Shown here piece after piece: positions 1,006-43,960 of a stretch of 64,000 bases of DNA. Within the stretch, counting starts at the first letter, position 1. Every line of letters starts with the position of its first letter. The translations under genes and the position numbers were made by a program. Source of the DNA: Patescibacteria group bacterium (GTDB taxonomy: Bacteria; Patescibacteriota; UBA1384; XYA2-FULL-43-10; 1-14-0-10-43-13); contig JBAZBD010000001.1 in the NCBI GenBank assembly GCA_041671645.1, positions 173,365 to 237,364 of the forward strand, given 5' to 3'. The notes below the pieces were generated by a model. The model was not told the origin of the DNA. It did no database searches and worked only from the letters and a program-made list of their open reading frames with translations.

Positions 1006-2244
1006 ATGCAACACAACAACCAAAAATACGCCTTTGTGCTTGGTCGTGAGCGCGATTTGTGCTTGACGGAACTCTATGCAGTTCTAGTTCGTTTTGGTTT
1101 TTGTTTTACAGTTCCCAGTGTATATGACAATGTCGCAATCATCAATATTGAAAATGCGAACGAAAGTGATGTGGCGAGCTTGATTGAGAGTCTGGGCGGC
1201 ACGATGAAGATTTTCCGCATGATCGTCCCAGTCGATAAGCAAGTCAAGGACAGAATAATTTCTTATATTACGAGCTCAGAGAGAAGCCAGAAGAAATTCA
1301 ACTATACTATTTCTTCTTACTCACGACTTTTCAATTACAAATCGATCTTTGATCTCGGTCTTTCGATCAAAAAGGAGCTGAAAAAGGAGCTATCCTTGCG
1401 ATTCGTTGAAATTAGAGAGGGCAAGGACGCTTCAAGTATTTTGTCCTTGAAAAATCATTTTGTGGATCAAGGTTTTGAGTTTGGCTTGTTCGAAGCAGAT
1501 CTAGGCATTTTAATCGCTCTCACGGATGCGGAAGAGTGGGGCGAGCGTGATTATGATAAGCCATCTGGCGACAAGAGAAGCGGAATGCTTCCGCCAAAAT
1601 TAGCCAGGATGATGATCAATCTTGCGCTAGGATCGAAGAAACAAGAGGGAAAATCTCTCGTGATTGATCCTTTCTGTGGATCGGGCAATATTCTGATCGA
1701 AGCATTGCTTCTTGGCGCTGACGCGATGGGCTCGGACGTGAGCGAAAAAGCGGTTAATGATTCGATGAACAATATCAAATGGCTTGTTGAAAACCCGAAA
1801 TATAGAGACAAAATTACTGCCAAAAATCCGAAGCCGAAGGTGCATATAGACCAAGCCGATGCTTCCAATGTAGATTTTGCAAAACTACTTTCGACTTTCG
1901 ACTTTCGACTTTCAGACTACAACAGCGTAGCTGTGGTGGCCGAGCCGTTTCTGGGCGAGCCCAAGAAATTTAAACCTAGCTTGAACGCAGTCAAGGGCGA
2001 ATATGCAAAGATTCAGGAATTATACATTGATTTCCTCAAGAATATTCGACAATCAGGGCTTCCAATTAATTCGTTGGTTTTGATTTTTCCACTGGTAGAA
2101 ACGCTCGAAGGCAAGCTCTACAGTCTCTTCGACGCAAGTGTTGACGAAATTGAAAAAATTGGCTATAGTGTACTCACTAAACCACTTGTTTATGGTAGAG
2201 AATACCAGGTTGTGAAGCGAGAGATCGTTTTACTACAGTTTTAA
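1006..2244 (+). CDS. SAM-dependent RNA/DNA methyltransferase (UPF0020/THUMP-type, N6-adenine/N2-guanine MTase-like)
   Basis: Motif I DPFCGSGNILIEA and motif IV-like AEPFLGEP are present. The ORF is intact at 412 aa. Confidence 0.6.
   Translation: MQHNNQKYAFVLGRERDLCLTELYAVLVRFGFCFTVPSVYDNVAIINIENANESDVASLIESLGGTMKIFRMIVPVDKQVKDRIISYITSSERSQKKFNYTISSYSRLFNYKSIFDLGLSIKKELKKELSLRFVEIREGKDASSILSLKNHFVDQGFEFGLFEADLGILIALTDAEEWGERDYDKPSGDKRSGMLPPKLARMMINLALGSKKQEGKSLVIDPFCGSGNILIEALLLGADAMGSDVSEKAVNDSMNNIKWLVENPKYRDKITAKNPKPKVHIDQADASNVDFAKLLSTFDFRLSDYNSVAVVAEPFLGEPKKFKPSLNAVKGEYAKIQELYIDFLKNIRQSGLPINSLVLIFPLVETLEGKLYSLFDASVDEIEKIGYSVLTKPLVYGREYQVVKREIVLLQF
1888..1918. repeat. Heptanucleotide tandem repeat (TCGACTT)x3-4 inside the methyltransferase CDS, in frame
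   Basis: The sequence is tcgactttcgactttcgactttcagact and encodes STFDFRLSDY. Confidence 0.8.
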
Positions 2245-3075: not shown

Positions 3076-3103
3076 CTACCAAGTTATATACAGTGCTCCA
3101 AAA

Positions 3104-3137
3104 AATACCCAATCGAAAGATAATGGGTATTTTTTTA
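3104..3137 (+). terminator. Rho-independent terminator after rplS
   Basis: The stem aataccca/tgggtatt has loop atcgaaagataa and is followed by a T7 run. Confidence 0.75.
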
Positions 3138-3142
3138 ATTAA

Positions 3143-3337
3143 ATGCTATCATTGAAAAAACAACTTGGAGGAAATATGAACTCAGAAGAAATTGTCAAAG
3201 CAGTAGAAGCGGCTGTTGATACATACAAACAAGATCTTGATCAGGTGGGCAAGAAGCAAAAGCAAGTTCTAAGCGATTTTATTGGTCGTTTGGAGCAAGA
3301 AAAGATGGATAAGATACGGAAGGAAATAGTACTATGA
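3143..3337 (+). CDS. Small hypothetical protein; the likely start is the ATG at 3176 after GGAGG
   Basis: The ORF has the RBS ggaggaaat-ATG at 3176, and its stop overlaps the next gene's ATG (ATGA). Confidence 0.4.
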   Translation: MLSLKKQLGGNMNSEEIVKAVEAAVDTYKQDLDQVGKKQKQVLSDFIGRLEQEKMDKIRKEIVL

Positions 3338-5424
3338 AAGGCGCCGAAAAGGTTGGGGAAAATACAGGAGAAGAAATAAAGGGGCAAGAGGCAACGCCTG
3401 CCGCGGAGCCTAGTAATAGTGAAGTATTGAACAATCGTGCCGAGCAGGTCGTCGGTCTGAAGGGTCTTTCAGAAAATATTAGTAGCAGAAACAGCCAGAC
3501 AGCCGAACAAGTCGGTGGAAATTTGGACGCAGACGCGACTGAAATCGCTGGAGTCAAGGCAGAGATAGATAGAATTGGTGTACAGGAAGGTGGCGTTGCT
3601 CAAGCTAGATTGGCAGAATCACTTGAGAAAATCAGGCAAGAAGCAGGCTCTGACGGCGAGAATCCTGAGGAGATTGCCGCATTGGATAACTTGATCAAAC
3701 GGGTGAAGCCTAGCGCGGAGGAGAATAGTGAAGTTCAGCCTGACGTAGATTGGGACGAAAATTCGGCCAATTTTGATGAAGGCGACAAGCATATCGCGTC
3801 TGAAGGTGAGGAAACTCAGGACGCAGGGCCAGAGCAGAGAGACGACGATGAGAAAACAAAGATCTACGAAGAGCCGAATTTAGATCCTGCCGTCCAGAAG
3901 ATATATGAAGAGATTACAGCTCGTGCGGCCAAATGGACGCAAGAGGCACAGAGCGGCAAGTCTGGCGCGATTGCACAGACCGAATCGCGGAAAGACCCTG
4001 CTCGATACTCGGGCCAGATGAACTTCTTGAGCTCCAGAGGAGTTTGGGAAAGATTTGCCAAAGATTATCCCGAAAAAGCGTTGGCTTACGCTGATAAGAA
4101 TGAGGACATTGCCGAGGGCTTGGCGGCTTCTGCCCCGCGTGCAGAAAAATCCGATGGAGCGCCGAAAATTATTCCCGGCGAAGCAGGGCCCGAAATGCCT
4201 GCAGAAGAAGATGAAACGCCAGGCGAGGAATCAGAATCGGAGACAGACAAAATGATTCAGGAGCTTGGTCTCGAAGATGCTTCGCCTGAGAATCCAGTCA
4301 AAATGCAGTGGGCCAACGAGGATGGCGATGTCGAGGTATCAGTCACTGGGGTCAATGAAGAGCCAGGTGCTGATGGCAGGACGTATGCTAGGGCTTTTGA
4401 CGAGGAAACTGGCGCAGAGTTTGAGGTGCCGCTAGACGAATTGCAGTCGATCGATCTAGCTGTCGGGGAGGAGGACGATGGATCCCCAGACGAAGAGGGC
4501 GAAGCTCAGAAGAAGGAAGCGCCAACCGAGAAAGAGGGCGAGGATGAGCCGACTCAGGCCGAAGCAGACGAGAAGAATAATGCTTATCGTGAGAAGATCT
4601 CTCAAGAGAGACAGCTGCGGATACGTGACCGCCTAGAGAGACGGGGCAAAGAGCAGGCAGAGAGAGACGAAGTGGCAGTACAATCAATTACGATGAGCCT
4701 AGAGAAGGCTAGTACTGCTCTTGCGGAGACGAAAGCCGATACGGGAGAAGAGAGCATATCGAAAATCGGTCCGGCTCTGAAGCTGTTAAATGAAAGTGGT
4801 GCTACCAAGAGAGAGCTTGCTATCCAACTTCTGCCTTCTGTCAGAGCTTTTGCTCGAAACATGGATAAATCATCTTCTGACCCAACTGCAGCGGAAACCA
4901 TTACAGCACAGAAAATACTCGGTAATCGAGAAGCTGGCGACCAGAGGTTGCAAGAAGCATTTGTCAAAATTAATTCATTGAATCAGGAGACAGACAAAGT
5001 CTCTGGCGGCGAATCCATGGCGTATTTGATGAAATATATCGTGAAAAACTCCGAGGGTAAACTTGGCAACCCTGCCCAGAAAGATGACATTGAAGCTCCC
5101 CAGGCACAAAATGATACGGTTGAAGAGGCTGAACCTTTGACTGCGGAGCGACCAATTGCTAATCAGGCAGAAGGAGCTGATTTAGGCGGTGATGAAGTTG
5201 GGGACGAAGGAAATGAACCAGGGTCCAGGAACGCCGACACAGTTGAAGAACCAAGCACGGCCCAAGATGGAGATCAAGAAGCGGCAAATCCATATAGCGA
5301 TCCGGAGGCTCAGCCAGATGTAAATTGGGATGACAATTCGGCCGAATTCGATGAGGCTGATAGGGAAATTGCCCAGTCAGATCAGACCGAGAAAACAGAA
5401 GCAAAAGCAGACAGCGGGGAATAA
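3334..5424 (+). CDS. Very acidic (D/E/A-rich) low-complexity hypothetical protein with an internally duplicated motif
   Basis: The 696-aa ORF carries the motif QPDV(D/N)WD(E/D)NSA(N/E)FDE(G/A)D(K/R)xIA near both the N- and C-termini. I see no signal peptide. Confidence 0.6.
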   Translation: MKGAEKVGENTGEEIKGQEATPAAEPSNSEVLNNRAEQVVGLKGLSENISSRNSQTAEQVGGNLDADATEIAGVKAEIDRIGVQEGGVAQARLAESLEKIRQEAGSDGENPEEIAALDNLIKRVKPSAEENSEVQPDVDWDENSANFDEGDKHIASEGEETQDAGPEQRDDDEKTKIYEEPNLDPAVQKIYEEITARAAKWTQEAQSGKSGAIAQTESRKDPARYSGQMNFLSSRGVWERFAKDYPEKALAYADKNEDIAEGLAASAPRAEKSDGAPKIIPGEAGPEMPAEEDETPGEESESETDKMIQELGLEDASPENPVKMQWANEDGDVEVSVTGVNEEPGADGRTYARAFDEETGAEFEVPLDELQSIDLAVGEEDDGSPDEEGEAQKKEAPTEKEGEDEPTQAEADEKNNAYREKISQERQLRIRDRLERRGKEQAERDEVAVQSITMSLEKASTALAETKADTGEESISKIGPALKLLNESGATKRELAIQLLPSVRAFARNMDKSSSDPTAAETITAQKILGNREAGDQRLQEAFVKINSLNQETDKVSGGESMAYLMKYIVKNSEGKLGNPAQKDDIEAPQAQNDTVEEAEPLTAERPIANQAEGADLGGDEVGDEGNEPGSRNADTVEEPSTAQDGDQEAANPYSDPEAQPDVNWDDNSAEFDEADREIAQSDQTEKTEAKADSGE

Positions 5425-5440
5425 GTGCTAGGATTATGAT

Positions 5441-7807
5441 ATGAAATTGTTTAAAAACAATATAAAAAGAGTTGGCTCATTCAAGCTAAAAGATTTTGAG
5501 TTGGTCAAAAACCATTACCTTGCTAGAGCATCAGAACTTAATCGACTCATAAATGGATCTAACAAAACCGAATCTCTGGCCGAGAATTCAAAGCGAGCTT
5601 ATTATCTGCATTGTTTTATCGACGATATGAGGGATTTGGGCTATCCGGAGATCGCGGATGGTCTTGAGGAGGCCTTAGCCAAAAGATATCACGATCCGAA
5701 AATATTGTTGAATATCGCTGAAGCAGGACTGTCCAGGATTCTTTCCAGTTTCGAAGGCAAAATCAGATTGGGGGAGAACGAATACCATATTCGTAATGGC
5801 AAAGCATATTACCAAAGTGTTTTTGACAAATGGTACGAGCTAAAAGGTGTTCAAGTCTTTCTCCTTACTCCTGATCTGGGCGAAGAAGTCGTCCCAATTG
5901 ATGCCGAGGGCGAAAAGGGCATCAATGAATATCAAACTTTTCTTCGAGCATGGCGAGAATCCGGTGGCAGAGACAATTTTGATTTTAGCTCGACAGACGG
6001 TGATACGACTCCAGAGAACTACTTCGAATCTTCTGTAAATGAAATTAGTAAAATTATTGAGACTCCAATAAGTTCAGAGGCGATCTTGGCAAAAATCGGT
6101 AGCGAGCAAAAATTTGAAAGAATCTTCAAAGTCGCTGCTAGGTTGATCAAATTTGTCAAAGAAATTCGAGATAGCGGCGTCTCGCCAGTCTACCTTTTGC
6201 GAGACGGCCTAATGTTCGCCGAGGCACAGAAAGCGCTTGATTTCGCTTCAGGGCAGGACACGCTGAGCGGACAATTGATGATCAACCGCAAGTTGCTGAG
6301 TAAGGAACCGGATGACCATTATTATTGGGCATTGGCGTCCGATGCGCTTTACGTCGCTCTGCCGAAGAACGGCCGTGATTTTGATCTTTTTTACAAGAAT
6401 TATTGCCAGGAGATGGCTAGACTCAAGATAAAAGAGCCCGGGTTTAAAGAACTGCTTAGTCGACTTGGTTTATACGTTTCCTCCCAGTTATCACATCTCA
6501 AGGGGTCGAAGAAAATATTGGTTGTAGACACTGGTCTCCAGGGGTCTATTAACATGCTCACCAAATACGTTATTGATTTCCACACTGATCTGGATGTGCC
6601 AGTAGACGTGGAAATGTTCGTGGTTGGAGATTGGCTGAAGCGAATCTATCAGAAAAGATACGCCAGCGATTATTACCCGATCCTGAAAGACATTGAGATA
6701 TTCAATCGAAGTGACCATTTGTACAATTACAGATCTGGAAGTTTCGAATCGGGGAAAGTAGAAGTAACCATGGGTAGCGAAGCTGAACAATTGATGGCTC
6801 ATGTCGAATTGATAATCATCACGATGTTGTGCAAATTGATGGATGAGCAGAAATCGGCGCCCAAAGTATCTCCAGCTGAGGCGGCTTCAGGCGGTATGGC
6901 AAACCAGTATTCTCTCGATGGATTTAAGCTGGCAAAAACTTTGGCTGACCCCTCAAAACCCCTAACGTCTCACACTGTAGAATTGTGGGAAAACCATCAG
7001 GGCGAACGTCTCGTGGTTAAGACCGTTTCGGATGGCCTTGAGCACAGTTTATCAGCAGATATTATCGGTCAACGTTGCTTCACTCTGCTGGGTTTGCCGT
7101 CGCCCCGGACGTCCCTGATAGAGCACGACGACAAATATCGTTTGGTGATGGAGTTTCTCGACGGGTACAAGACACCAGATGATCCCCTAGCTCTGCCCCT
7201 GGGCCAAGAAAATAATCGAGTGATCCAATCTGGCATTCTAGCTGATATCTGGCTCCATCATTATGATCGGCAGCCTTACAATTTCATGTTCAAGGGCGAT
7301 GAGCCTGTATTTATTGATTTCGGAGGGTGTTTGACCTCTTCGCCAAGCGGCAAAATTACTGGTTTTCCGGCCGAAATTACAGATCAGGAAATATTGAATT
7401 GCATCAAAGCTTTTCAGGGCGATTATCCGGTCAATCAAGCGTATGGAGAAGTCATTTCTTTTAACCCAAGCTCGAAAAAGATTGTTGTCAAAGATGCTGA
7501 ACTTCTGGCTCGACTGGCTGATCAACTCTCCAAGGTTTCCGATGAACAAATCGAGGCGATTGTCAGTCAGAACATTTTGTTTTTCCAAAAACATAATCCA
7601 GACAGAATCCAACATATCCTGGACAATTTGGAGGAAAACTTGAAGATACCAATTGAGAAACTTCACTATGCTCATTACCATAATAATTTCCTCGAGGCAC
7701 GCGATACTTTTGCCCGCGTTAGAGATGAATTTGATTCTGATGAATCAAACTATATTCAGTTTGCGCTGAAGCAACGACGTGATATGTTGGTGAAAAGATT
7801 TAAATAA
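5441..7807 (+). CDS. Hypothetical protein with a C-terminal atypical protein-kinase-like (PI3/4K-like) catalytic core
   Basis: The C-terminal region has RLVVKTV (Lys), a hinge at VMEFLDG, the catalytic loop WLHHYDRQPYNFMF (HxDxxxxN / DRxxxN) and FIDFGG (DFG). The N-terminal ~500 aa is unrecognised. Confidence 0.6.
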   Translation: MKLFKNNIKRVGSFKLKDFELVKNHYLARASELNRLINGSNKTESLAENSKRAYYLHCFIDDMRDLGYPEIADGLEEALAKRYHDPKILLNIAEAGLSRILSSFEGKIRLGENEYHIRNGKAYYQSVFDKWYELKGVQVFLLTPDLGEEVVPIDAEGEKGINEYQTFLRAWRESGGRDNFDFSSTDGDTTPENYFESSVNEISKIIETPISSEAILAKIGSEQKFERIFKVAARLIKFVKEIRDSGVSPVYLLRDGLMFAEAQKALDFASGQDTLSGQLMINRKLLSKEPDDHYYWALASDALYVALPKNGRDFDLFYKNYCQEMARLKIKEPGFKELLSRLGLYVSSQLSHLKGSKKILVVDTGLQGSINMLTKYVIDFHTDLDVPVDVEMFVVGDWLKRIYQKRYASDYYPILKDIEIFNRSDHLYNYRSGSFESGKVEVTMGSEAEQLMAHVELIIITMLCKLMDEQKSAPKVSPAEAASGGMANQYSLDGFKLAKTLADPSKPLTSHTVELWENHQGERLVVKTVSDGLEHSLSADIIGQRCFTLLGLPSPRTSLIEHDDKYRLVMEFLDGYKTPDDPLALPLGQENNRVIQSGILADIWLHHYDRQPYNFMFKGDEPVFIDFGGCLTSSPSGKITGFPAEITDQEILNCIKAFQGDYPVNQAYGEVISFNPSSKKIVVKDAELLARLADQLSKVSDEQIEAIVSQNILFFQKHNPDRIQHILDNLEENLKIPIEKLHYAHYHNNFLEARDTFARVRDEFDSDESNYIQFALKQRRDMLVKRFK

Positions 7808-7818
7808 CAGAGGCATTT

Positions 7819-9183
7819 ATGACCACCGAAATTAATAGAGGCAAAGAGATGGAAAAGGTTCAAAATACCCGAGATCTATTTTTCTATCCAGAAGGCGAAG
7901 GAGCAAATAATCCGATCAGAATAATTATGGTTGGATCTTCCGAAAGCTCAAAAGATGAGCAAAAAAAAGAAATGGGCCAGATCGTAGCCGAAGAGAGCGC
8001 TAAGGGGATGGCCAAAATTGTAGAGAAGGGCAAGAAGGTCCTCTGGAGCATGGCTACGGGCTCGACTTTTAATTGGCCAGAAAATTTGCCGGTGTCTCTC
8101 GAGCAGACTGGCGTCGACCCCAAAGATATTATCCCGATTGTCAAAGAAGACGCTTGGGATCAAGATCGTAACCATTTCCCATCAGGCAATGGCTATGATT
8201 TTCGTGGAAAAAGAATTAATTCTTTTCATAAACTTTTTGGTTTGGAGCCGAAGAATGTTTCTGTATCTGATGGGCAAATCGAGGGGAATATCGTCGCGCC
8301 TGATTATGACATGTCACCCGAACAAGCCGTAGACTATATGAATGAAACGTGGTCGGCGCTTACTAAGACTGGTCAGGTTGAAGGCTTTACCACAACTGGA
8401 GTAGGCGAAGATATGCATGTAGGCGAATTTCAAATAAACAAGATGGGTTTGGAAAATCAGATCAAGCAAATGGATTTCTTCCTTCAGCCTGTGAACGATT
8501 ATAGCGACGAGAGAGGTCTGTTTCGATGGCTCAAGAATCCTGAAGAGTTTGCAAAGGAAAGCAACGTATTTGTCGAACGGGGCAAAGAGGGATGGCAAGC
8601 GACTGGTCGCACAGCCAAACTTGGCGAAGATATTGTTGGCGGGACAGTCATGGGGATGGGTTGGAGAGCCATGCTGGAGACTCCAGGAGGCGCTGTGTTT
8701 GCATTTGATAGCGGGAGCAAAGCATTGGCGGCCCGGTCTGCAATCCAGGGCTCTCTGTCAGGTGTGATCAAGGATTCTGATGGCATAGAAGTGCTCAAAG
8801 TTGAGGCAGAAAGAGGCGAAGGCATCGGGATTTGGGATGATCTAGCGAAGATTGTCGGCCAATATGAAGAGGATGGCATACTCGAGCACGGTTATTTTGA
8901 CAAAATAATGGCATCGTCTGAGACCGAAAATTCGAAAATTGGATTGATCAACAACATTCTTGAAGACATATACAGCGCATATATCGAAAAAAATATTTCA
9001 CCTCAGAAACCAGAGCAGAATGAGAAATATTTCCAGCCTCTATGGCGCCTTGTGAACCGTTATCTCGGGTATCGATCCCCGGTCTCTCTGTGGGTTAGCC
9101 AGTTGCAGAGGAGAGGCACACCGGTTACGCTCGTGATTACGCGTCAAGCGGCAGCAGAATTGCCCTCTGAAATGCTGGTTTGA
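7819..9183 (+). CDS. Hypothetical protein (454 aa)
   Basis: The ORF is intact, on the same strand and tightly spaced after the kinase-like gene. I recognise no motif. Confidence 0.55.
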   Translation: MTTEINRGKEMEKVQNTRDLFFYPEGEGANNPIRIIMVGSSESSKDEQKKEMGQIVAEESAKGMAKIVEKGKKVLWSMATGSTFNWPENLPVSLEQTGVDPKDIIPIVKEDAWDQDRNHFPSGNGYDFRGKRINSFHKLFGLEPKNVSVSDGQIEGNIVAPDYDMSPEQAVDYMNETWSALTKTGQVEGFTTTGVGEDMHVGEFQINKMGLENQIKQMDFFLQPVNDYSDERGLFRWLKNPEEFAKESNVFVERGKEGWQATGRTAKLGEDIVGGTVMGMGWRAMLETPGGAVFAFDSGSKALAARSAIQGSLSGVIKDSDGIEVLKVEAERGEGIGIWDDLAKIVGQYEEDGILEHGYFDKIMASSETENSKIGLINNILEDIYSAYIEKNISPQKPEQNEKYFQPLWRLVNRYLGYRSPVSLWVSQLQRRGTPVTLVITRQAAAELPSEMLV

Positions 9184-9202
9184 CATAAAATAAGGTTAGA
9201 TA

Positions 9203-9238
9203 AAAAATGCTTGCACAACATTCAGCAGGCATTTTTTG
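9203..9238 (+). terminator. Rho-independent terminator
   Basis: The hairpin is aatgcttgc...gcaggcatt and is followed by TTTTTT. Confidence 0.7.
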
Positions 9239-9301
9239 ATGGACAAAGATATCAAATTATGGTAAAGATATTCCAAACGCTATATGCGGGAGGGTGAGAA
9301 A

Positions 9302-9976
9302 ATGGCAGATGAGAAAATTCCAGTTTATCGATGGGAATTGACAGAAGAGGAACTTGGAATCAGAGTGACAGTGCGACGATTGCTGATCTACGATATCAGC
9401 ACGACAAGAGCTGAGGGTACGATTCTTTGTCGGGATAACATCGAAGGCAGAAACTTTGAAGATCATTGGGCTGCGGATTCTCGAGACGGACAATGGGTGG
9501 TTAAGTGCGTCAGAGATAAATCCGGCCCCTTCGATGAAAAGCTCGGTGAGCCGTTGTTTACCGGAGCGATAAATATCAACGGCTGGATCAAAGTGTTCAT
9601 TGCGAAGCGGATTGTGCATCATCTCCAGACTGGGGAAACACAGAATGTGATTCCGCTTTATACTGGGAAGGTCGGGGTTTGCCCGGGAGACTGTCAGTGC
9701 CGTGAGGTTGGTGCCTTTGGTAGCACTTCGCCGCCGAGACTCTGGAGGGATTTAATGGATGGCTATGAGCATCCCGCCAATTGCTTTTCTTGCAGCTGCG
9801 GAAGACACTGGTTCTTCAGCGCAGAGGATGAGCGTTTCTACTTTGTGGCAGACGATGAAGCCTGGGAAGAGCTGACTACCCACGACGGACAGTCGCGTTA
9901 CTGGTTGGGCTTTCAATATGATGCCCTGTATTTGTCGCAGACTTTGCGAAAGAGAGGCTTAATCCCTCTCGGTTAA
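9302..9976 (+). CDS. Cys-rich hypothetical protein (putative zinc-binding C-terminal half); the ORF could extend to 9284
   Basis: It contains CPGDCQC...CFSCSCGRHW. The RBS gggagggtgag precedes the ATG at 9302. Confidence 0.55.
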   Translation: MADEKIPVYRWELTEEELGIRVTVRRLLIYDISTTRAEGTILCRDNIEGRNFEDHWAADSRDGQWVVKCVRDKSGPFDEKLGEPLFTGAININGWIKVFIAKRIVHHLQTGETQNVIPLYTGKVGVCPGDCQCREVGAFGSTSPPRLWRDLMDGYEHPANCFSCSCGRHWFFSAEDERFYFVADDEAWEELTTHDGQSRYWLGFQYDALYLSQTLRKRGLIPLG

Positions 9977-13786: not shown

Positions 13787-14092
13787 ATGGAACGAATTCT
13801 TGTAAACATTGATTCTGGCGGAGTCTCTGTGGTGGGCGTACTGGGCGACGAAGAGAAGCTGATATTGGAGAGACAAATCGATTTTGTCGGCAATTTTCAT
13901 CCATCTCGCGGGCTTCATTTCAATGACGAGGAAGCCCTGATCAGATTGCTCGAGCGGATCAGCGCAAATTATTTTGACAAAAGAATTGAGGCAAAAGCCT
14001 CGGGGATATTTGAGAAATTGGACAGAAGATTCTTCGAAGAGCTCAAACGTGAAGCTTTCAAAAGATCAAAAATAGAGTTACAATTAGCGTAA
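13787..14092 (+). CDS. Hypothetical protein (101 aa)
   Basis: The ORF starts 4 nt after the GT4 stop. Confidence 0.5.
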   Translation: MERILVNIDSGGVSVVGVLGDEEKLILERQIDFVGNFHPSRGLHFNDEEALIRLLERISANYFDKRIEAKASGIFEKLDRRFFEELKREAFKRSKIELQLA

Positions 14093-14111
14093 GAATTAAT
14101 GGGGAGGGGTT

Positions 14112-14432
14112 ATGGCCGATCAAGATGTGAAGAAAAGTCTAGACGATATCAAAGATGATCTATTTTCTGCGTTAAATATTGCCGGAGTGTCTGACTCTGA
14201 CAAGAAAGTTTTGGCTGCCAAGATGTACAGGGCGGTTGAGGACAGAGCGATTGCACGTTTCATGACTGAGGCGACAGAAGAACAAAAAGCCAAGATTGAT
14301 GAGATTGCGAAGCAAAACGATCCAAAATTGTTTGACCAATATATCGAGGACAATTACGCTAGCATCGAGCAGATCTTCCAAGAGGAAGCGCTCAAACTAA
14401 GAAGTGATCTAATCGCCAAATTCGGCAAATAG
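14112..14432 (+). CDS. Hypothetical protein (106 aa)
   Basis: The ORF has a GGAGGGG RBS. Confidence 0.5.
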   Translation: MADQDVKKSLDDIKDDLFSALNIAGVSDSDKKVLAAKMYRAVEDRAIARFMTEATEEQKAKIDEIAKQNDPKLFDQYIEDNYASIEQIFQEEALKLRSDLIAKFGK

Positions 14433-14442
14433 GAGGGATATT

Positions 14443-17019
14443 ATGGGAGAGAGCAAAGGCGGATCTGAAAAATCATTTTGGGGCAATTTATTTGGTGGGA
14501 AAAAAGAGACTTCAGCCTTAGAGGATTCGAAAAGGTTAGCAGAGGAATTTAAAAATATTGGAACTGGGTCACCGAAAAATGAGGTTAAGCCGGTTGGTAG
14601 TTTTCTAGACATTAAATCAGATGCCACAGCTATGCCAATCGATGTTAAGCAAGAACGGAAAGAAGTTCTTGATGAGGCACTTTTGACTACTGGAGTCCCT
14701 TCAGATGTTGATGCTGAGCTGAATCAATCTGAGCGTTTCCTTTCGTCGGACGAGTTTCAGCGTTGGATTGATTCTGCCGCTTCCAGTGTCAATGGTGAGT
14801 CTGTTGGTGTCGGAGAAGAACAGATCCAGGATCAAAAAGTGAAAGAGATTACCAGCGACCCTCTCCTCGAGGTCCAGAAAAGTCCGACCGAGGCTCTGAT
14901 TAAGTTCAAGGAAGCTCTTCGGAAAAATGCCAAGAATATTGCCCGAGTGGTGTTGGCCTGTGTAATTGTGGGTCTTGGGTCTACTGTGGTGAACAAAAAT
15001 ACCGAGAATCGTCCGCCGACATCGCAGATACTGCCTCCTACATCATCCGTGATACAGCAGTCGCCTGATGATTCTGCTGGGCCTGGATTTGTGCCTGATG
15101 ATACGATTCCAAATTTCAATCAGCCTGCCGTCATGCCGGGGCTAGATGGAAAATCGCCAGCAGACGATTTCCTCTCGCAAACCAATCCACGAGATATATT
15201 CGAGCCTCAGGGTGATATGAAGGGCGCCGCCAATCCGCTTATCGGTGGTGGCGTTGATCTGGCTAAGCCTGCCGTCGGACCGGATTTAACTCAAAGAGCT
15301 CCTGGTCTAGCTGATGGTGCTAACAACGCAGATAAAACTTTAGGAGATACCGATATTGGCGCTACAACGATTACCCCACCTCCACCGGACAAAATTGAAA
15401 GAGGCGACCTGGCTCCCAAGACGTTGCTTAGTGACCCACACAATACAAATTTCAAAAATGAACATTTTCAAGATCTTGAGGCTGGCAAAGCCCATGATAT
15501 CGCGAAGGAAATTCTAGATGGCTATCTCAACAATCCTGCCAAAAACACCAAGGGCGTGACTCTCACTCCTGAGCAAAATGAGCAGGTTATTGATGCAGTG
15601 AACAAAGAGATCATTAAGCAGGGTTACGCAAACCTTGATGGTTCTATCGACAAAGACAAAGAGGCCAATGTCCGCATGTTCGACCCCATGAAAGTCGTAC
15701 CAGAAGCCATAGATACAGTTTTGGCAGGGCAGACCACGGTGTCACAATCGCCGGATATGATGAAAATACCTACCCTCAATGATATCCCGACTCCCATCGA
15801 TAATATAACTCGTAATGGATCGTTGACACCAATAGCGACGGGTGAGGTTTTCGGGCCAAAAGTCGAGCTGACAAGCGTCGATAATATCAAACCTATCGCT
15901 GATGCGGCAAATGCAGACTCGGAAATCGACAAAGGGAAAACCGAAGAAAGCACAAATCCGCTCAAAGATGTTCTGGCTAATCCCAATATTACAATCGACA
16001 AGATTGAACCCGCTCCGCCCTCTACGGCTCAGGTTATAGCCAAAATATCGGGCGAAAAGCCAGATTTGACCTCAAATGAACTTTCAAAATTGAGACCTGG
16101 GATGGACAATGCATTGCCTGCGCTAGAGGATGACTCTGCTGGCGCGGTAAGCGTAGCGCCAGCCCCTGTGACAAAATTGGAAGTGGGCGCTCCATTAATC
16201 GTCCCTGATAATTCAGAGCCTCTGGTTGACCCAAATATAGGTCGCAAGGCATTTACCGGATTATTTGGTCGTGGAGTAATGTCAGCAGAAGAAGCGGACA
16301 AGGCTGGCGCCGTCAAGTGGGTCCCAGGCCAGAAGGTCGCTCCGAAACCTCAGGGTTCGGGGATCAAATGGCCGAGTCGAAGCAGTAGCGAAGTTGTGAA
16401 ATCAGAAAATGTGGTCACTGCTGACTCTGGTGATTTTCCGGGAGATTACAAAACTTCGAAAGAATCATCCGATTTCTCTGAGCAGGCGACGAAGGAAGCC
16501 GCGCTCAAAAGTCCAGCCGAAAGAGAGAAGGCGGCCCGGACATTCTTGAGACAGTCTGAGAAACTCGTGGCCAAAAACCCTGATGCGAAAATAGCCGAAG
16601 CTCAGCTTGATGAAACAAAAATGAAGCTTCTAACTCTTACCAGCGGTACAAGCGCGGAAAATGCTCAGAAGTTTAACGCTATTTGGAATAGGATATTCGT
16701 TGTCTTGCAGGAGAAAGGTGCTGGTGCTGTTGCTGACCTTGCCAAGGATATCAAGGATCACCCAGATAGAGTGTCGCAACATTTCCCAGGACTTGTCCCA
16801 GATAGCGCAGACAAACCTGCGGTCGCGCCGACTGAAGTTGGTGCGAGTAGCCCAGACGGAGAGTGGGTGGGAGTCGAGATGACTAGAGGAAAGTTCAAAT
16901 GGGCCCCAGTCATTCTGGAATTTCTAAAGAACTGGGATTTTCGAGGCAAGTTATATATTGGGTTAAAGACGATTATTAACGCAACTGATAACTCTGCAGA
17001 AAACCTTCAAGGCAAGTAA
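14443..17019 (+). CDS. Large (858 aa) P/S/T/D-rich membrane-anchored surface protein, hypothetical
   Basis: It has a single TM segment, NIARVVLACVIVGLGSTVV, followed by low-complexity extracellular sequence. The RBS is aggaggga. Confidence 0.6.
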   Translation: MGESKGGSEKSFWGNLFGGKKETSALEDSKRLAEEFKNIGTGSPKNEVKPVGSFLDIKSDATAMPIDVKQERKEVLDEALLTTGVPSDVDAELNQSERFLSSDEFQRWIDSAASSVNGESVGVGEEQIQDQKVKEITSDPLLEVQKSPTEALIKFKEALRKNAKNIARVVLACVIVGLGSTVVNKNTENRPPTSQILPPTSSVIQQSPDDSAGPGFVPDDTIPNFNQPAVMPGLDGKSPADDFLSQTNPRDIFEPQGDMKGAANPLIGGGVDLAKPAVGPDLTQRAPGLADGANNADKTLGDTDIGATTITPPPPDKIERGDLAPKTLLSDPHNTNFKNEHFQDLEAGKAHDIAKEILDGYLNNPAKNTKGVTLTPEQNEQVIDAVNKEIIKQGYANLDGSIDKDKEANVRMFDPMKVVPEAIDTVLAGQTTVSQSPDMMKIPTLNDIPTPIDNITRNGSLTPIATGEVFGPKVELTSVDNIKPIADAANADSEIDKGKTEESTNPLKDVLANPNITIDKIEPAPPSTAQVIAKISGEKPDLTSNELSKLRPGMDNALPALEDDSAGAVSVAPAPVTKLEVGAPLIVPDNSEPLVDPNIGRKAFTGLFGRGVMSAEEADKAGAVKWVPGQKVAPKPQGSGIKWPSRSSSEVVKSENVVTADSGDFPGDYKTSKESSDFSEQATKEAALKSPAEREKAARTFLRQSEKLVAKNPDAKIAEAQLDETKMKLLTLTSGTSAENAQKFNAIWNRIFVVLQEKGAGAVADLAKDIKDHPDRVSQHFPGLVPDSADKPAVAPTEVGASSPDGEWVGVEMTRGKFKWAPVILEFLKNWDFRGKLYIGLKTIINATDNSAENLQGK

Positions 17020-41552: not shown

Positions 41553-42461
41553 ATGTCGATTGATTTAACTGATAAAGAACAACTTACAAAATATTTGAAG
41601 TCTAAGGGGTTATTGGCCAAGCAAAGTTTGGGCCAGAATTTTCTAGTTGATCGAGAGGTACTGGAAAAAATCGTAGAAGCGGCTGAGATAAAAACTAGCG
41701 ACACTGTAATCGAAGTCGGCCCAGGTCTTGGCACGTTGACGGAGGAATTAATTTTGCGGGCAGGCAAAGTCATCGCAATTGAGAAAGACGATAAGTTGGC
41801 AAAATTGTTGAGTTCACAATTTTGTCATCCTGAACTTGATTCAGGATCCAGTATTGTTAACCTAGATTCCGGATCTCAAGCCGCAGTCCGGAATGACAAT
41901 CTGGTTGTGCTAAACTCCGATATTCTAGCGGTCAATGTTCCGGAGCTGACGGGCGGAAAACCTTACAAAGTGGTGGCAAATATCCCTTATTACATTACGG
42001 CCAAAATCATCAAGTTGTTTCTGACCTCAGAGAATAAGCCTGAGTCAATCGTTTTGTTAGTGCAAAAAGAGGTGGCTGAGCGTATTTGCGCTAAGCCAGG
42101 ACAATTATCAATTCTCGCGCTATCTGTCCAAGCATTTGGCGAACCGGAAATTGTAAGCGTCGTGAAGCGGGATTCTTTTTTCCCAGCTCCTGCAGTTGAT
42201 TCGGCGATACTTCGTATCAGAATTCAGAATTCAGAATTCAGAATTCAACCGGAAGACGAGAGAGAACTTTTCCGTCTGATCCATATTGGCTTTGCCAGCA
42301 AGCGCAAAACTCTCATAAACAATTTATCGGCAGGACTTCGAATTGATAAAAAAGCAATAGCGGATATAATTAAATCAATCGGACTTGGCGAAAACGCCAG
42401 AGCACAAGAGCTGAGTCTGGAAGAGTGGAAGAAGCTATCATTAATATTGAAACTGAAATGA
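41553..42461 (+). CDS. rsmA: 16S rRNA (adenine1518/1519-N6)-dimethyltransferase
   Basis: GQNFLVD, the motif I EVGPGLGTLT and NIPYYIT are present. Confidence 0.9.
   Translation: MSIDLTDKEQLTKYLKSKGLLAKQSLGQNFLVDREVLEKIVEAAEIKTSDTVIEVGPGLGTLTEELILRAGKVIAIEKDDKLAKLLSSQFCHPELDSGSSIVNLDSGSQAAVRNDNLVVLNSDILAVNVPELTGGKPYKVVANIPYYITAKIIKLFLTSENKPESIVLLVQKEVAERICAKPGQLSILALSVQAFGEPEIVSVVKRDSFFPAPAVDSAILRIRIQNSEFRIQPEDERELFRLIHIGFASKRKTLINNLSAGLRIDKKAIADIIKSIGLGENARAQELSLEEWKKLSLILKLK
42217..42247. repeat. Heptanucleotide tandem repeat (CAGAATT)x4, in frame in rsmA/ksgA
   Basis: tcagaattcagaattcagaattcagaattcaacc encodes IRIQNSEFRIQ. Confidence 0.8.
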
Positions 42462-43960
42462 TGAAGTTAATCGGCGAGCCGACTCCTGATCAAAATCAAT
42501 CAGTCTCGAACGAAGGAGTTGAAGGTGATGATGGTCATTTTTCAGCCATTAATTATAATTCGGACGATCTGGTCGAGCCGACGTTCCCAGAATTTGACCT
42601 GCGCGACACTCGAGAATTCCAAGAGGTTTACGAGGAGACTCTGGACTTAGCCGAGAAGGTATCTGGTCATATTGCTACTATGCTCAAGTTCCAGGACAGT
42701 TCTCTGGAGGTTGAACTGATTGAGAAATCTATTCTGAGGGAAATTGCTGAGCGATTCCAGAATTTTAACGAGGGCAAGGTTGACCTGGCGGTTCGCGGCT
42801 TGGCATTAATTAACGCTGAATTGCAAGGCTTGCTTTCCTATCCTGCCACACCTCAGGGCTTTATGGATGCACAGTTCATTATCGATGATTTTCTAAAGGA
42901 GCAGCCGAAGTCAGATAAAGAAAAACTTGAAGGAGGCCTTTTCTCTCAAGAGATAATTGCTCGACGCTTACAACGTTTGTATGATAAATCTGACTTTAAC
43001 CTGCGCGATTACGAAGGTTTGACAACGAACACAACGGTGAGTCTCGAGCATCTCTTGAAGGAATTAATGCTTCACACTTTAACCACAGGGGCAAAGAATC
43101 CCGAAGAGCTTACAATTCTGGATCTGGGAGCCGGAGAAGGAAGACTCGCTATTCCTCTAGCCACTCTAGGTTATCATGTGAATGGCATCGATATCTCAAA
43201 GGGAATGGTCGAGAAAGTAGACGATCGGACAGAGCTGTTTTGGGATGGTTTTACAGGCAAGACCTCAGATAAACTTGCAGAATCGGCAAACACTGTCTTT
43301 GACGCTCTAAAAGTTTCTCCAAAGGTAGAAAACTTAGACGATCTGAAAAAAAACATCCAAATCCAGCAGGGCAATTTCTTCGATATTGACAGCGAAGATT
43401 ATGATAGGAGATTTGGCCCCGATAAGGCCGACGCTGCTATCGTTATGTGGCACACCTTTGGATTTGCGGGTGATCATGAAGGCCAAATGAAGGTATTAAA
43501 AAATATTTATGATAATGTGCGACCTGGCGGCATAGTCGCTATCGAGATGCCTGATCGTGAGTTTGGCGGTTATGGAAGGGCGGTTCGAGAATATCAGCGG
43601 TTGCATGGCCAGGATAACGATGCACAGAAGCCGATTCCGTTTGGGGCTCTAGTCGACGCACCCTCAAAGAGCGCCGGAAATCCGACAGAACAGAACGAAG
43701 AGCTTGAAACGCCAAGATATTTCCCAAGCAAAAATGAGATGATTGGTATATTAGAAGACGCTGATTTCAATCTCGCTGAGTGCTACGACTATTTTGTCCC
43801 GATTGATGGTCCTGACGGAAAACAACTGGCAGTCCTGGAACATCTGTTTGTCGCTGTAAGGCCTAGAGGCAAGAGTCAGAAGAATCTACGTGCCAAAACC
43901 GAAATAGCGCAAGAAGATTCATCACGTCTAGAGGAAGTAAGGAAGAGAATAGCTGCCTAA
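42425..43960 (+). CDS. Hypothetical protein with a class I SAM-dependent methyltransferase domain; the start could be at ~42458
   Basis: ILDLGAGEGRLAIPLATLGYHVNGIDIS is motif I, and VRPGGIVAIE is present. Confidence 0.65.
   Translation: MEEAIINIETEMMKLIGEPTPDQNQSVSNEGVEGDDGHFSAINYNSDDLVEPTFPEFDLRDTREFQEVYEETLDLAEKVSGHIATMLKFQDSSLEVELIEKSILREIAERFQNFNEGKVDLAVRGLALINAELQGLLSYPATPQGFMDAQFIIDDFLKEQPKSDKEKLEGGLFSQEIIARRLQRLYDKSDFNLRDYEGLTTNTTVSLEHLLKELMLHTLTTGAKNPEELTILDLGAGEGRLAIPLATLGYHVNGIDISKGMVEKVDDRTELFWDGFTGKTSDKLAESANTVFDALKVSPKVENLDDLKKNIQIQQGNFFDIDSEDYDRRFGPDKADAAIVMWHTFGFAGDHEGQMKVLKNIYDNVRPGGIVAIEMPDREFGGYGRAVREYQRLHGQDNDAQKPIPFGALVDAPSKSAGNPTEQNEELETPRYFPSKNEMIGILEDADFNLAECYDYFVPIDGPDGKQLAVLEHLFVAVRPRGKSQKNLRAKTEIAQEDSSRLEEVRKRIAA

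Follow-up and report, generated by a model that had tools for sequence, protein, structure and literature searches.

Which of the four genes following rplS in this Patescibacteria contig belong together, and what might their products do? The window, i.e., the whole 64-kb stretch of DNA that was analysed, carries between two terminator-like hairpins a small ORF, a gene for a hyper-acidic protein, a gene for a two-unit protein (domains A and K) and a gene for a further protein, here called I (Table 1). As the preliminary description had stated, all four genes point the same way, lie close together and have a terminator on either side. Both hairpins, each consisting of an A-tract, a stem and a U-tract, proved real upon folding, with -14.3 kcal/mol (z -5.1) for region 3096-3140 and -15.1 kcal/mol (z -4.9) for region 9196-9240, and no structure was found at the internal gene junctions. 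With flanking terminators present and none internal, it is plausible that the four genes form a single transcription unit. Two starts had been said to overlap the preceding gene, but only one does, namely the ATG at 3334 of the 696-aa gene, which overlaps the small ORF stop ending at 3337; the claim of two is wrong because the remaining junctions are gaps of 16 and 11 nt. Since co-directional, tight packing holds across nearly the whole window, gene adjacency alone is weak evidence.

Table 1. Features of the gene block, in window coordinates.
Feature	Position	Strand	Description
rplS (L19)	2563-3075		Gene preceding the block; Ribosomal_L19 match
Upstream hairpin	3100-3137	+	Intrinsic terminator-like; after rplS; upstream block boundary
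Small ORF	3143-3337	+	64 aa as listed
Hyper-acidic protein, WC227_00875	3334-5424	+	696 aa
Motif copy 1, QPDVDWDENSANFDE	3736-3780	+	aa 135-149 of the acidic protein
Motif copy 2, QPDVNWDDNSAEFDE	5311-5355	+	aa 660-674 of the acidic protein
A-K fusion protein, WC227_00880	5441-7807	+	788 aa
Domain A	5441-6850	+	aa 1-470 of WC227_00880
LLRDG	6194-6208	+	aa 252-256; holds invariant R254 and D255
VDTGLQGS	6524-6547	+	aa 362-369; G365 invariant, D363 and G368 near-invariant
Domain K	6845-7807	+	aa 469-788 of WC227_00880; separate gene of ~320 aa in relatives
Lys527 codon (VVK)	7019-7021	+	Predicted ATP-phosphate-binding lysine
HHYDRQPYN	7256-7282	+	aa 606-614; catalytic loop
IDFGG	7313-7327	+	aa 625-629; predicted metal-binding DFG-type motif
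Protein I, WC227_00885	7819-9183	+	454 aa
MATGST loop	8050-8067	+	aa 78-83 of I; aligned to the NagB phosphate-binding PTGGT loop
GVGEDMH	8398-8418	+	aa 194-200 of I; aligned to NagB GVGnDGH; D198 and H200 invariant
Downstream hairpin	9201-9238	+	Intrinsic terminator-like; downstream block boundary

A, K and I adjoin in five other diverged Patescibacteria loci besides the window, in lineages that include Saccharibacteria and Magasanikbacteria. Identity between loci amounts to 46-72% for K, 27-54% for I and 21-45% for A. The order is A-K-I in L004 and L007 and K-I-A in L003 and L006, while L002 contains A-I with no K between; on L001, a 10-kb contig, A stands alone. The genes flanking A, K and I vary from locus to locus, those in L006 and L007 including map, ruvX-like and recO-like genes. 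The adjacency of A, K and I despite the varied gene order argues for functional coupling. Of the four-gene functional module proposed in the preliminary description, the synteny of the kinase protein and the 454-aa protein was thus borne out in relatives, whereas neither the acidic protein nor the small ORF is present there and the four genes never recur together. On the basis of these sequence comparisons, the block consists of two orphan genes and a conserved three-part module. Elsewhere in the window, neither A, K and I nor the acidic protein has a paralogue, and a limited literature search returned no published description of an A-K-I module or of the K kinase family.

The two genes outside this module have few informative features. 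The small ORF, annotated by JGI only and absent from the NCBI calls, more likely starts at ATG 3176, with GGAGG five nt upstream, which would yield a helical, charged product of 53 aa. This product has no significant Pfam match (best E 0.037), no NCBIfam or PADLOC match, and no homologue in loci L001-L007 or among 114 retrieved proteins. The 696-aa protein is indeed extremely acidic (pI 4.2, net charge -94, 24% D+E), and its low hydrophobicity, disorder-prone composition and lack of a hydrophobic segment indicate that it is probably disordered. Within the whole window, the duplicated motif QPDVxWDxNSAxFDE has exactly two copies, those at aa 135 and aa 660 of this protein. At the DNA level, five synonymous and three conservative changes separate the two copies, so it is the protein motif that is conserved. 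For the acidic protein, neither family matches (Pfam, NCBIfam, PADLOC and PHROG profiles) nor homologues (L001-L007 and the retrieved proteins) were detected.

These observations bear on the proposal of a four-gene operon with a signalling or effector function, the hyper-acidic repeat protein being substrate or scaffold of the kinase. The duplicated aromatic-acidic motif could in that case serve for docking, and tight co-directional packing with two strong terminators outside and none between the genes would be in line with a joint function. However, such packing extends over nearly the whole window, none of the other five loci with the kinase module has the acidic protein or the small ORF, no homologue of either was found in the fetched loci or among the retrieved proteins, and domain K lacks the glycine-rich loop and APE motif of eukaryotic-type protein kinases (ePK). 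We therefore regard a four-gene operon of this kind as highly improbable. The earlier suggestion that the acidic protein is a kinase substrate or scaffold is not supported, as no link was found and the protein is absent from every related locus. Judged by their distribution, the small ORF and the acidic protein are lineage-specific orphans outside the conserved module; the acidic protein is probably co-transcribed with A-K-I yet no component of it.

The 788-aa protein has 99 homologues, of which 70 contain K and 32 contain A; both occur together only in the window protein. This protein is thus a fusion of two units, A and K, that are separately encoded in relatives. The kinase motifs reported previously (VVK, HHYDRQPYN and IDFGG) are present and conserved across about 70 homologues of domain K. 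Position 527 is Lys in 45 of 52 homologues and invariant in a 22-sequence alignment, and position 609 is Asp in 57 of 68 and Asn in the other 11. R610 is found in 61 of 68, N614 in 67 of 68, D626 in all 69 and G628 in all 68. The objection that homologues might lack the catalytic residues therefore fails, since Lys527, Asp609, Asn614 and Asp626 are all kept. With an N-lobe Lys, a catalytic-loop Asp followed by Asn five residues later and a DFG-type Asp, K has the features of the protein-kinase-like (PKL) superfamily, and its catalytic core aligns to PknB-type and PI4KB cores. The K domains of the triad make up a separate subfamily (YDRQPYNFMF / IDFGGSLTSSPSGK). With pLDDT below 45, the AlphaFold model of K is not usable for judging a bilobal fold.

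The catalytic loop had left two options, DRxxxN as in PI3/PI4-kinases or HxDxxxxN as in ePK/APH, and the first proved the better one. The best PDB profile matches of K are all PI4KB, PI3K-alpha or PI4KA, over DRHxxN and IDFG. YDRQPYN and IDFGG align column for column with DRHNGN and IDFG of PI4KB, His being replaced by Gln, and D-R-x-x-x-N and I-D-F-G likewise align with equal spacing to PI3/PI4-kinase catalytic domains (PF00454), such as human PI4KB (PDB 6gl3 and 4d0l) and PI3K-alpha. In addition, the context of the ATP-binding Lys in K, K-x-G...L-[RS]-A-D, resembles the PROSITE signature K..DDLRQD of these enzymes. An ePK reading was rejected, as K has no GxGxxG before VVK (the sequence there is HTVELWENHQGERLVVK), no APE after IDFGG and no Pkinase Pfam match, while the profile matches favour PI3/PI4-kinases. 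PI3_PI4_kinase (PF00454) matches weakly in 9 of 22 K members (best E 0.0022), whereas window K has no match to it and lies below every Pfam threshold. The best relatives reach 23.7 and 22.3 bits, under the gathering cut-off of 27.1 bits. At E up to 0.01, almost all of the other matches of K members are to the PKL families APH (PF01636; three members, weakly, best E 1.3e-4), HipA (HipA_C and HipA_2, weakly, in single members each) and ABC1, with RIO1 and Fam20C among the weaker ones. Combined, these matches indicate that K is a protein-kinase-like domain nearest to PI3/PI4-kinases, though under the family thresholds.

K also departs from these kinases in several respects. The His of DRH is Gln in window K and Thr in most relatives, the helical PIK accessory domain is lacking, and K, which comprises only ~320 aa, has a conserved helical extension of its own at the C-terminus (...YxxxALKxRRD). 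To our knowledge, partners such as A and a NagB-like protein have no precedent among PI3/PI4-kinases. Given that its nearest detectable relatives are lipid kinases, K might phosphorylate a membrane lipid head group, either phosphatidylinositol-like or from a host-scavenged glycolipid. One K relative is fused to a domain of the inositol-monophosphatase family (E 2.6e-44). Since the substrates of this family are small phosphorylated molecules, the fusion speaks for the sugar pathway proposed below, and it also fits a lipid kinase. On the other hand, the similarity to PI3/PI4-kinases is sub-threshold and limited to the catalytic core, no membrane-binding or hydrophobic segment is present, and the conserved partner I is folded like enzymes and sensors of soluble sugar phosphates. 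A role of K as a lipid kinase thus appears very unlikely to us.

Protein I consists of a core with the NagB/6-phosphogluconolactonase alpha/beta fold, to which a helical region of roughly 120-150 aa is added at the C-terminus. A79-T80-G81, E110, D198, H200 and K301 are invariant in six members of the I family. In the alignment to NagB, ATGST corresponds to PTGGT of the phosphate loop, E110 to the acidic catalytic residue (the Asp of NMDEY), D198 and H200 to DGH, and K301 to the phosphate-binding Lys of KALA. Window I has no Pfam match, PF01182 included; of the six family members only the L002 homologue matches PF01182 (24.7 bits, E 2.5e-5), below its gathering threshold of 27 bits. Furthermore, I is larger than typical PF01182 proteins (454 aa versus about 240-270 aa), from which it differs by an insert (aa 195-287; roughly 90 residues, poorly modelled) besides the C-terminal extension, and its acidic pair is E-D rather than the D-E of NagB. 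Protein I is accordingly assigned to the NagB/6-phosphogluconolactonase fold, with conserved predicted active positions. This NagB-like fold points to small-molecule metabolism and less to protein signalling.

Relatives of domain A are standalone proteins of ~480-530 aa forming an uncharacterised family, in which R254, D255, R283 and G365 are invariant in the family alignment and G111, N113, P144, E226, D363, G368, E419 and Q450 near-invariant. Word-indexed homologue searches recovered no more than two relatives for A and a single one for I. Domain A has no PDB sequence match, no Pfam match is common to more than one of 27 family members, and PADLOC and PHROG gave no match for the family. The strand-Asp motifs LLRD, VDTGxQGS and VVGDW were compared by eye with HAD-like and ASKHA-like folds, and neither fold found support. 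The would-be HAD motif IV Asp is not conserved, and A is left unassigned.

Taking the three parts together, we tentatively favour, with somewhat less than even confidence, a sugar-phosphorylating pathway in which K phosphorylates, I processes the phosphosugar and A contributes a coupled step. K would transfer phosphate from ATP to a hydroxyl group on a soluble, sugar-like substrate (for example an amino sugar, a hexose or a cyclitol). I would then act on the resulting phosphosugar by NagB-family chemistry, i.e., ring opening followed by isomerisation or deamination, or lactone hydrolysis. A may perform the step directly before or after K, and such coupling would explain the A-K fusion. Together, the three proteins would provide a host-dependent bacterium with a small pathway for salvage or catabolism. 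The connection from the kinase to a phosphosugar is drawn from the fold of the partner and from fusions in relatives. AmgK with MurU, the APH family and fructosamine kinases are small-molecule kinases of the PKL fold that work with sugar-processing enzymes, and the clustering of a PKL kinase with a sugar-phosphate-handling enzyme may be analogous here. In contrast to these systems, the partner enzymes differ, A has no counterpart and similarity does not reach the level of family membership. The locus in which A adjoins I with no K between, the contig with A alone, and the failure of window I and K to reach any Pfam threshold count against a sugar pathway.

CPR/Patescibacteria are host-dependent and carry many genes without an assigned function. 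What was an anonymous gene block is now a defined, testable module, whose parts are tied together by a natural fusion and, in several lineages, by their conserved adjacency. The conserved genes are told apart from lineage-specific passengers, which guards against over-reading the acidic protein. If K proves to be a sugar or cyclitol kinase, the PI3/PI4-kinase-like fold would extend to soluble carbon salvage in bacteria, and there would be a handle on what epibionts take from their hosts.

Beyond the module, the wider K family lies largely within larger multidomain proteins. K domains occur in proteins of 1,000-6,039 aa; 7 of the 11 giants inspected have signal-peptide-like N-termini, and some carry 2H-phosphoesterase (2H-SAK) or adenylate-kinase domains. 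With this distribution, effector or nucleotide/RNA-directed roles fit at least as well as sugar metabolism. They also lend some weight to a reading of the triad as an effector or conflict module, where K would be a toxin- or effector-type kinase (HipA-like or bacterial PI3/4-kinase-like) directed at a host or competitor molecule, A and I would be accessory, activating or immunity proteins, and the giant secreted K proteins would carry the same warhead in a form made for delivery. The broad fold class shared with HipA toxin kinases and secreted bacterial PI3/4-kinase-like effectors, the weak HipA_C and HipA_2 matches and the host-dependent lifestyle of the CPR bacterium agree with this. However, no HipB-like partner accompanies K, PADLOC (E up to 0.1; five window proteins and three A-family members) and PHROG (all genes of the block) gave no match, defence systems included, and neither an A relative nor a YDRTPWN-encoding pattern was found in viral contigs. 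Moreover, none of the four proteins shows a transmembrane or signal segment, so that the triad K, a subfamily of its own, is predicted to be cytoplasmic. It adjoins a metabolic-type enzyme, as I keeps residues at the NagB catalytic positions, and it is surrounded by housekeeping genes (rplS and gltX in the window; those named above in L006 and L007). An effector module is therefore unlikely in our view.

The sugar pathway can be extended to a broader and rather doubtful picture, in which A, K and I would represent an undescribed, Patescibacteria-specific three-enzyme pathway: K as a soluble sugar or cyclitol kinase from a new bacterial branch of the PI3/PI4-kinase-like fold, feeding a divergent NagB-like enzyme, A as a new enzyme family, and the same kinase branch recurring in giant secreted proteins of uncultured bacteria, possibly acting on host molecules. 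Since K also occurs in giant proteins, several of which have signal-peptide-like N-termini, it is a candidate for an effector domain in host interaction.

In the Patescibacteria metagenome-assembled genome from which the window derives (contig of 867,751 bp), all four ORFs of the preliminary description were recovered as described. Two of the starts had been said to overlap the preceding gene, but only one overlap was observed (start at 3334 against a gene end at 3337), and the remaining junctions are gaps of 16 and 11 nt. Folding placed a strong terminator-type hairpin at each boundary of the block, in line with the flanking terminators proposed earlier, and detected no structure at the internal junctions. 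A consensus terminator scan missed both hairpins owing to their loop length and GC content. The block is preceded by rplS (Pfam match Ribosomal_L19) and followed by a 230-aa orphan and then gltX (glutamyl-tRNA synthetase, recognized by eye from the translation). The small ORF was called by JGI only and is absent from the NCBI annotation; its likelier start is ATG 3176 with GGAGG five nt upstream, which yields 53 aa. Throughout the window (1-64000), nearly all long ORFs run in the + direction and are separated by short gaps, and the cumulative GC skew climbs steadily. To be co-directional and tightly packed is the norm across this genome and counts as weak evidence for an operon.

Coordinates of features in the window and in related loci
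Sequence	Feature	Position	Strand	Basis or remark
Window	Upstream hairpin	3096-3140		-14.3 kcal/mol, z -5.1
Window	Small ORF	3143-3337	+	ORF call
Window	696-aa acidic protein WC227_00875	3334-5424	+	ORF call, NCBI tag
Window	788-aa protein WC227_00880	5441-7807	+	ORF call, NCBI tag
Window	454-aa protein I WC227_00885	7819-9183	+	ORF call, NCBI tag
Window	Downstream hairpin	9196-9240		-15.1 kcal/mol, z -4.9
Window	230-aa orphan	9284-9976		224 aa per NCBI
Window	Terminator-like site of the orphan	9952-9970
Window	858-aa acidic protein	14443-17019		pI 4.8, no Pfam match
Window	511-aa protein	42425-43960		pI 4.6
L004	Run of N (XXXX in translation)	~6400-6480		3' end of the A gene, directly before K
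L006	Methionine aminopeptidase (Peptidase_M24), then ruvX-/recO-like ORFs	13792-16168		ruvX/recO by eye
L007	Reverse transcriptase	1066-2124		RVT_1, E 2e-22
L007	Methionine aminopeptidase (Peptidase_M24), then ruvX-/recO-like ORFs	6309-8364		ruvX/recO by eye

An exhaustive search with the 788-aa protein against 1.84 billion representative proteins returned 99 matches, which split locally into 70 with the C-terminal kinase-like domain (K, aa 469-788) and 32 with the uncharacterised N-terminal domain (A, aa 1-470). Among these matches, only the window protein holds both domains. Members of the A family elsewhere are standalone proteins of 480-530 aa, and K occurs either as a standalone protein of ~320 aa or as a domain of larger proteins, the longest of which has 6,039 aa. 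Judged from these alignments, the 788-aa protein is a fusion of A and K. Within the A family, R254, D255 and R283 are invariant and D363, E419, Q450 and N113 near-invariant; these conserved polar residues suggest that A is an enzyme, with no relative of known function detectable in PDB sequences or in Pfam.

The kinase-like core read from the window protein holds up in its homologues, in which the catalytic Lys/Asp/Asn/Asp residues are conserved. Lys527 is retained in 45 of 52 homologues, Arg610 in 61/68, Asn614 in 67/68, Gly628 in 68/68 and Asp626 in all 69, while position 609 is Asp in 57 and Asn in 11 of 68. A 22-sequence K profile compared with PDB sequences gave PI4KB, PI3K-alpha and PI4KA as top matches at weak E-values (0.02-0.2), with the alignment falling exactly over DRHxxN and IDFG. 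When single members were scanned against Pfam, 9 of the 22 showed a weak PI3_PI4_kinase match; almost every other match at E <= 0.01 fell in a protein-kinase-like family (APH, HipA, ABC1), and RIO1 and Fam20C appeared among the weaker ones. The window protein matches no Pfam family and no K member reaches a Pfam gathering score, so that K is not a PF00454 member by that family's own criterion. The Hanks-type glycine-rich loop and the APE motif are also absent from K. K is thus predicted to be a new family in the protein-kinase-like superfamily, closest to the PI3/PI4-kinases. A lipid-kinase role for K is possible, the remote PI3/4K similarity being the one observation that points to it.

Protein I, the 454-aa product, has the NagB/6-phosphogluconolactonase fold, as indicated by four lines of evidence. 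At locus L002, the homologue of I scores just under threshold for Pfam Glucosamine_iso (E 2.5e-5), and a six-sequence I profile retrieves glucosamine-6-phosphate deaminases first from the PDB (E 0.005). With the moderate AlphaFold model of I (pLDDT 57.7, pTM 0.62), Foldseek ranked B. subtilis NagB first with a probability of 0.94 but an E-value of only 0.1, and gave no match that reached E 0.001. Furthermore, invariant residues of the I family align with functional positions of NagB: A79-T80-G81 fall on the phosphate loop PTGGT, E110 on the acidic position in NMDEY, D198 and H200 on GVGnDGH, and K301 on the Lys of KALA. I exceeds NagB in length by ~200 aa. Residues 195-287 form an insert that is poorly modelled, and the C-terminus is extended by a helical region. 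On present sequence comparisons, both K and I represent new, divergent families inside known superfamilies.

Related loci were drawn from Logan, NCBI, GTDB-genome and JGI metagenome contigs. In pairwise comparisons, K is 46-72% identical, I 27-54% and A 21-45%.

Gene order of A, K and I in the window and related loci
Locus	Source	Order	Remark
Window	Patescibacteria MAG	A-K (fused), I
L002	Logan	A, I
L003	Logan	K, I, A	A cut by contig end
L004	Saccharibacteria MAG	A, K, I	I cut by contig end; N-gap at A/K junction, compatible with separate genes or a fusion
L006	Magasanikbacteria (K: OGH64084.1), contig of 221 kb	K, I, A
L007	JGI metagenome	A, K, I
L001 = L005	Patescibacteria MAG	A alone	10-kb contig

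The flanking genes vary between loci. An ABC substrate-binding protein lies upstream of the module in L004. In L007 the A gene is directly preceded by a reverse transcriptase, perhaps of a retron-type element or a group II intron. The window orphan contains eight Cys and eight Trp; it has no family match and no counterpart beside the module in other loci. L006 and L007 share their downstream genes but differ in order (K-I-A versus A-K-I), which suggests that the module was rearranged internally within a conserved position. Adjacency kept through rearrangement and changing contexts, together with the natural fusion, argues for a joint function of A, K and I. Of the four-gene unit proposed earlier, the pairing of the kinase protein with I recurs in relatives, whereas neither the acidic protein nor the small ORF has a homologue at the related loci or among the retrieved proteins. 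A limited search of Pfam, NCBIfam, PADLOC and the literature found no description of the three-part module or of the K family in giant secreted proteins. The A-K-I module is a piece of CPR 'dark matter' that is real, conserved and open to testing.

The strongest rival to a metabolic role is an effector or conflict function. Many K domains reside in giant proteins, and 7 of the 11 inspected open with signal-peptide-like sequences (P0028, P0033, P0040, P0048, P0065, P0067 and P0080; metagenomic, 2,384-6,039 aa, K embedded). Some also bear other domains, namely a 2H-SAK phosphoesterase in P0028 and an adenylate kinase, along with two K copies, in P0033. However, the triad K forms a distinct subfamily, the triad is located among housekeeping genes, and I resembles a metabolic enzyme. 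Neither PADLOC nor PHROG gave defence-system or phage-family matches, and viral contigs yielded no relatives of A and no YDRTPWN-encoding pattern. None of the four window proteins has a signal or membrane segment.

NagB-fold enzymes and sensors bind sugar phosphates, PI3/PI4-type kinases phosphorylate cyclitol ring hydroxyls, and the inositol-monophosphatase family acts on small phosphorylated molecules. One K relative, P0025 (1,029 aa), is fused to an inositol-monophosphatase-family domain (E 2.6e-44). Since I has conserved residues where NagB has its phosphate loop, its acidic residue, its His and its Lys, the neighbouring K would be the obvious source of a phosphate handle. Based on the fold of I, the cyclitol chemistry of PI3/PI4-type kinases and the P0025 fusion, we favour a short sugar-phosphorylating pathway of A, K and I, whose substrate and physiological role we infer. 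Here, K would phosphorylate a small molecule resembling a sugar, perhaps a hexose or amino sugar derived from the host, and I would isomerise, deaminate or hydrolyse the product. A would carry out a coupled step, which would account for its fusion to K.

The acidic protein (pI 4.2, net charge -94, Asp+Glu 24%) has a disorder-prone composition along its entire chain and no hydrophobic segment, and matched nothing in Pfam, NCBIfam, PADLOC or PHROG. The window holds two copies of the motif QPDVxWDxNSAxFDE in all, both of them in this protein (aa 135 and aa 660). The DNA of the two copies carries five synonymous and three conservative differences, indicating maintenance at the protein level rather than recent DNA duplication. 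The preliminary description considered this protein a possible substrate or scaffold, an idea that draws solely on co-transcription and is weakened because the protein is missing wherever else the module occurs. Its acidity alone is not distinctive either, since the window encodes other acidic proteins. Besides the 858-aa one, the 511-aa protein combines an acidic N-terminal region of ~200 aa with a SAM-methyltransferase domain, and regions of acidic, disorder-prone composition appear to be frequent in this genome.
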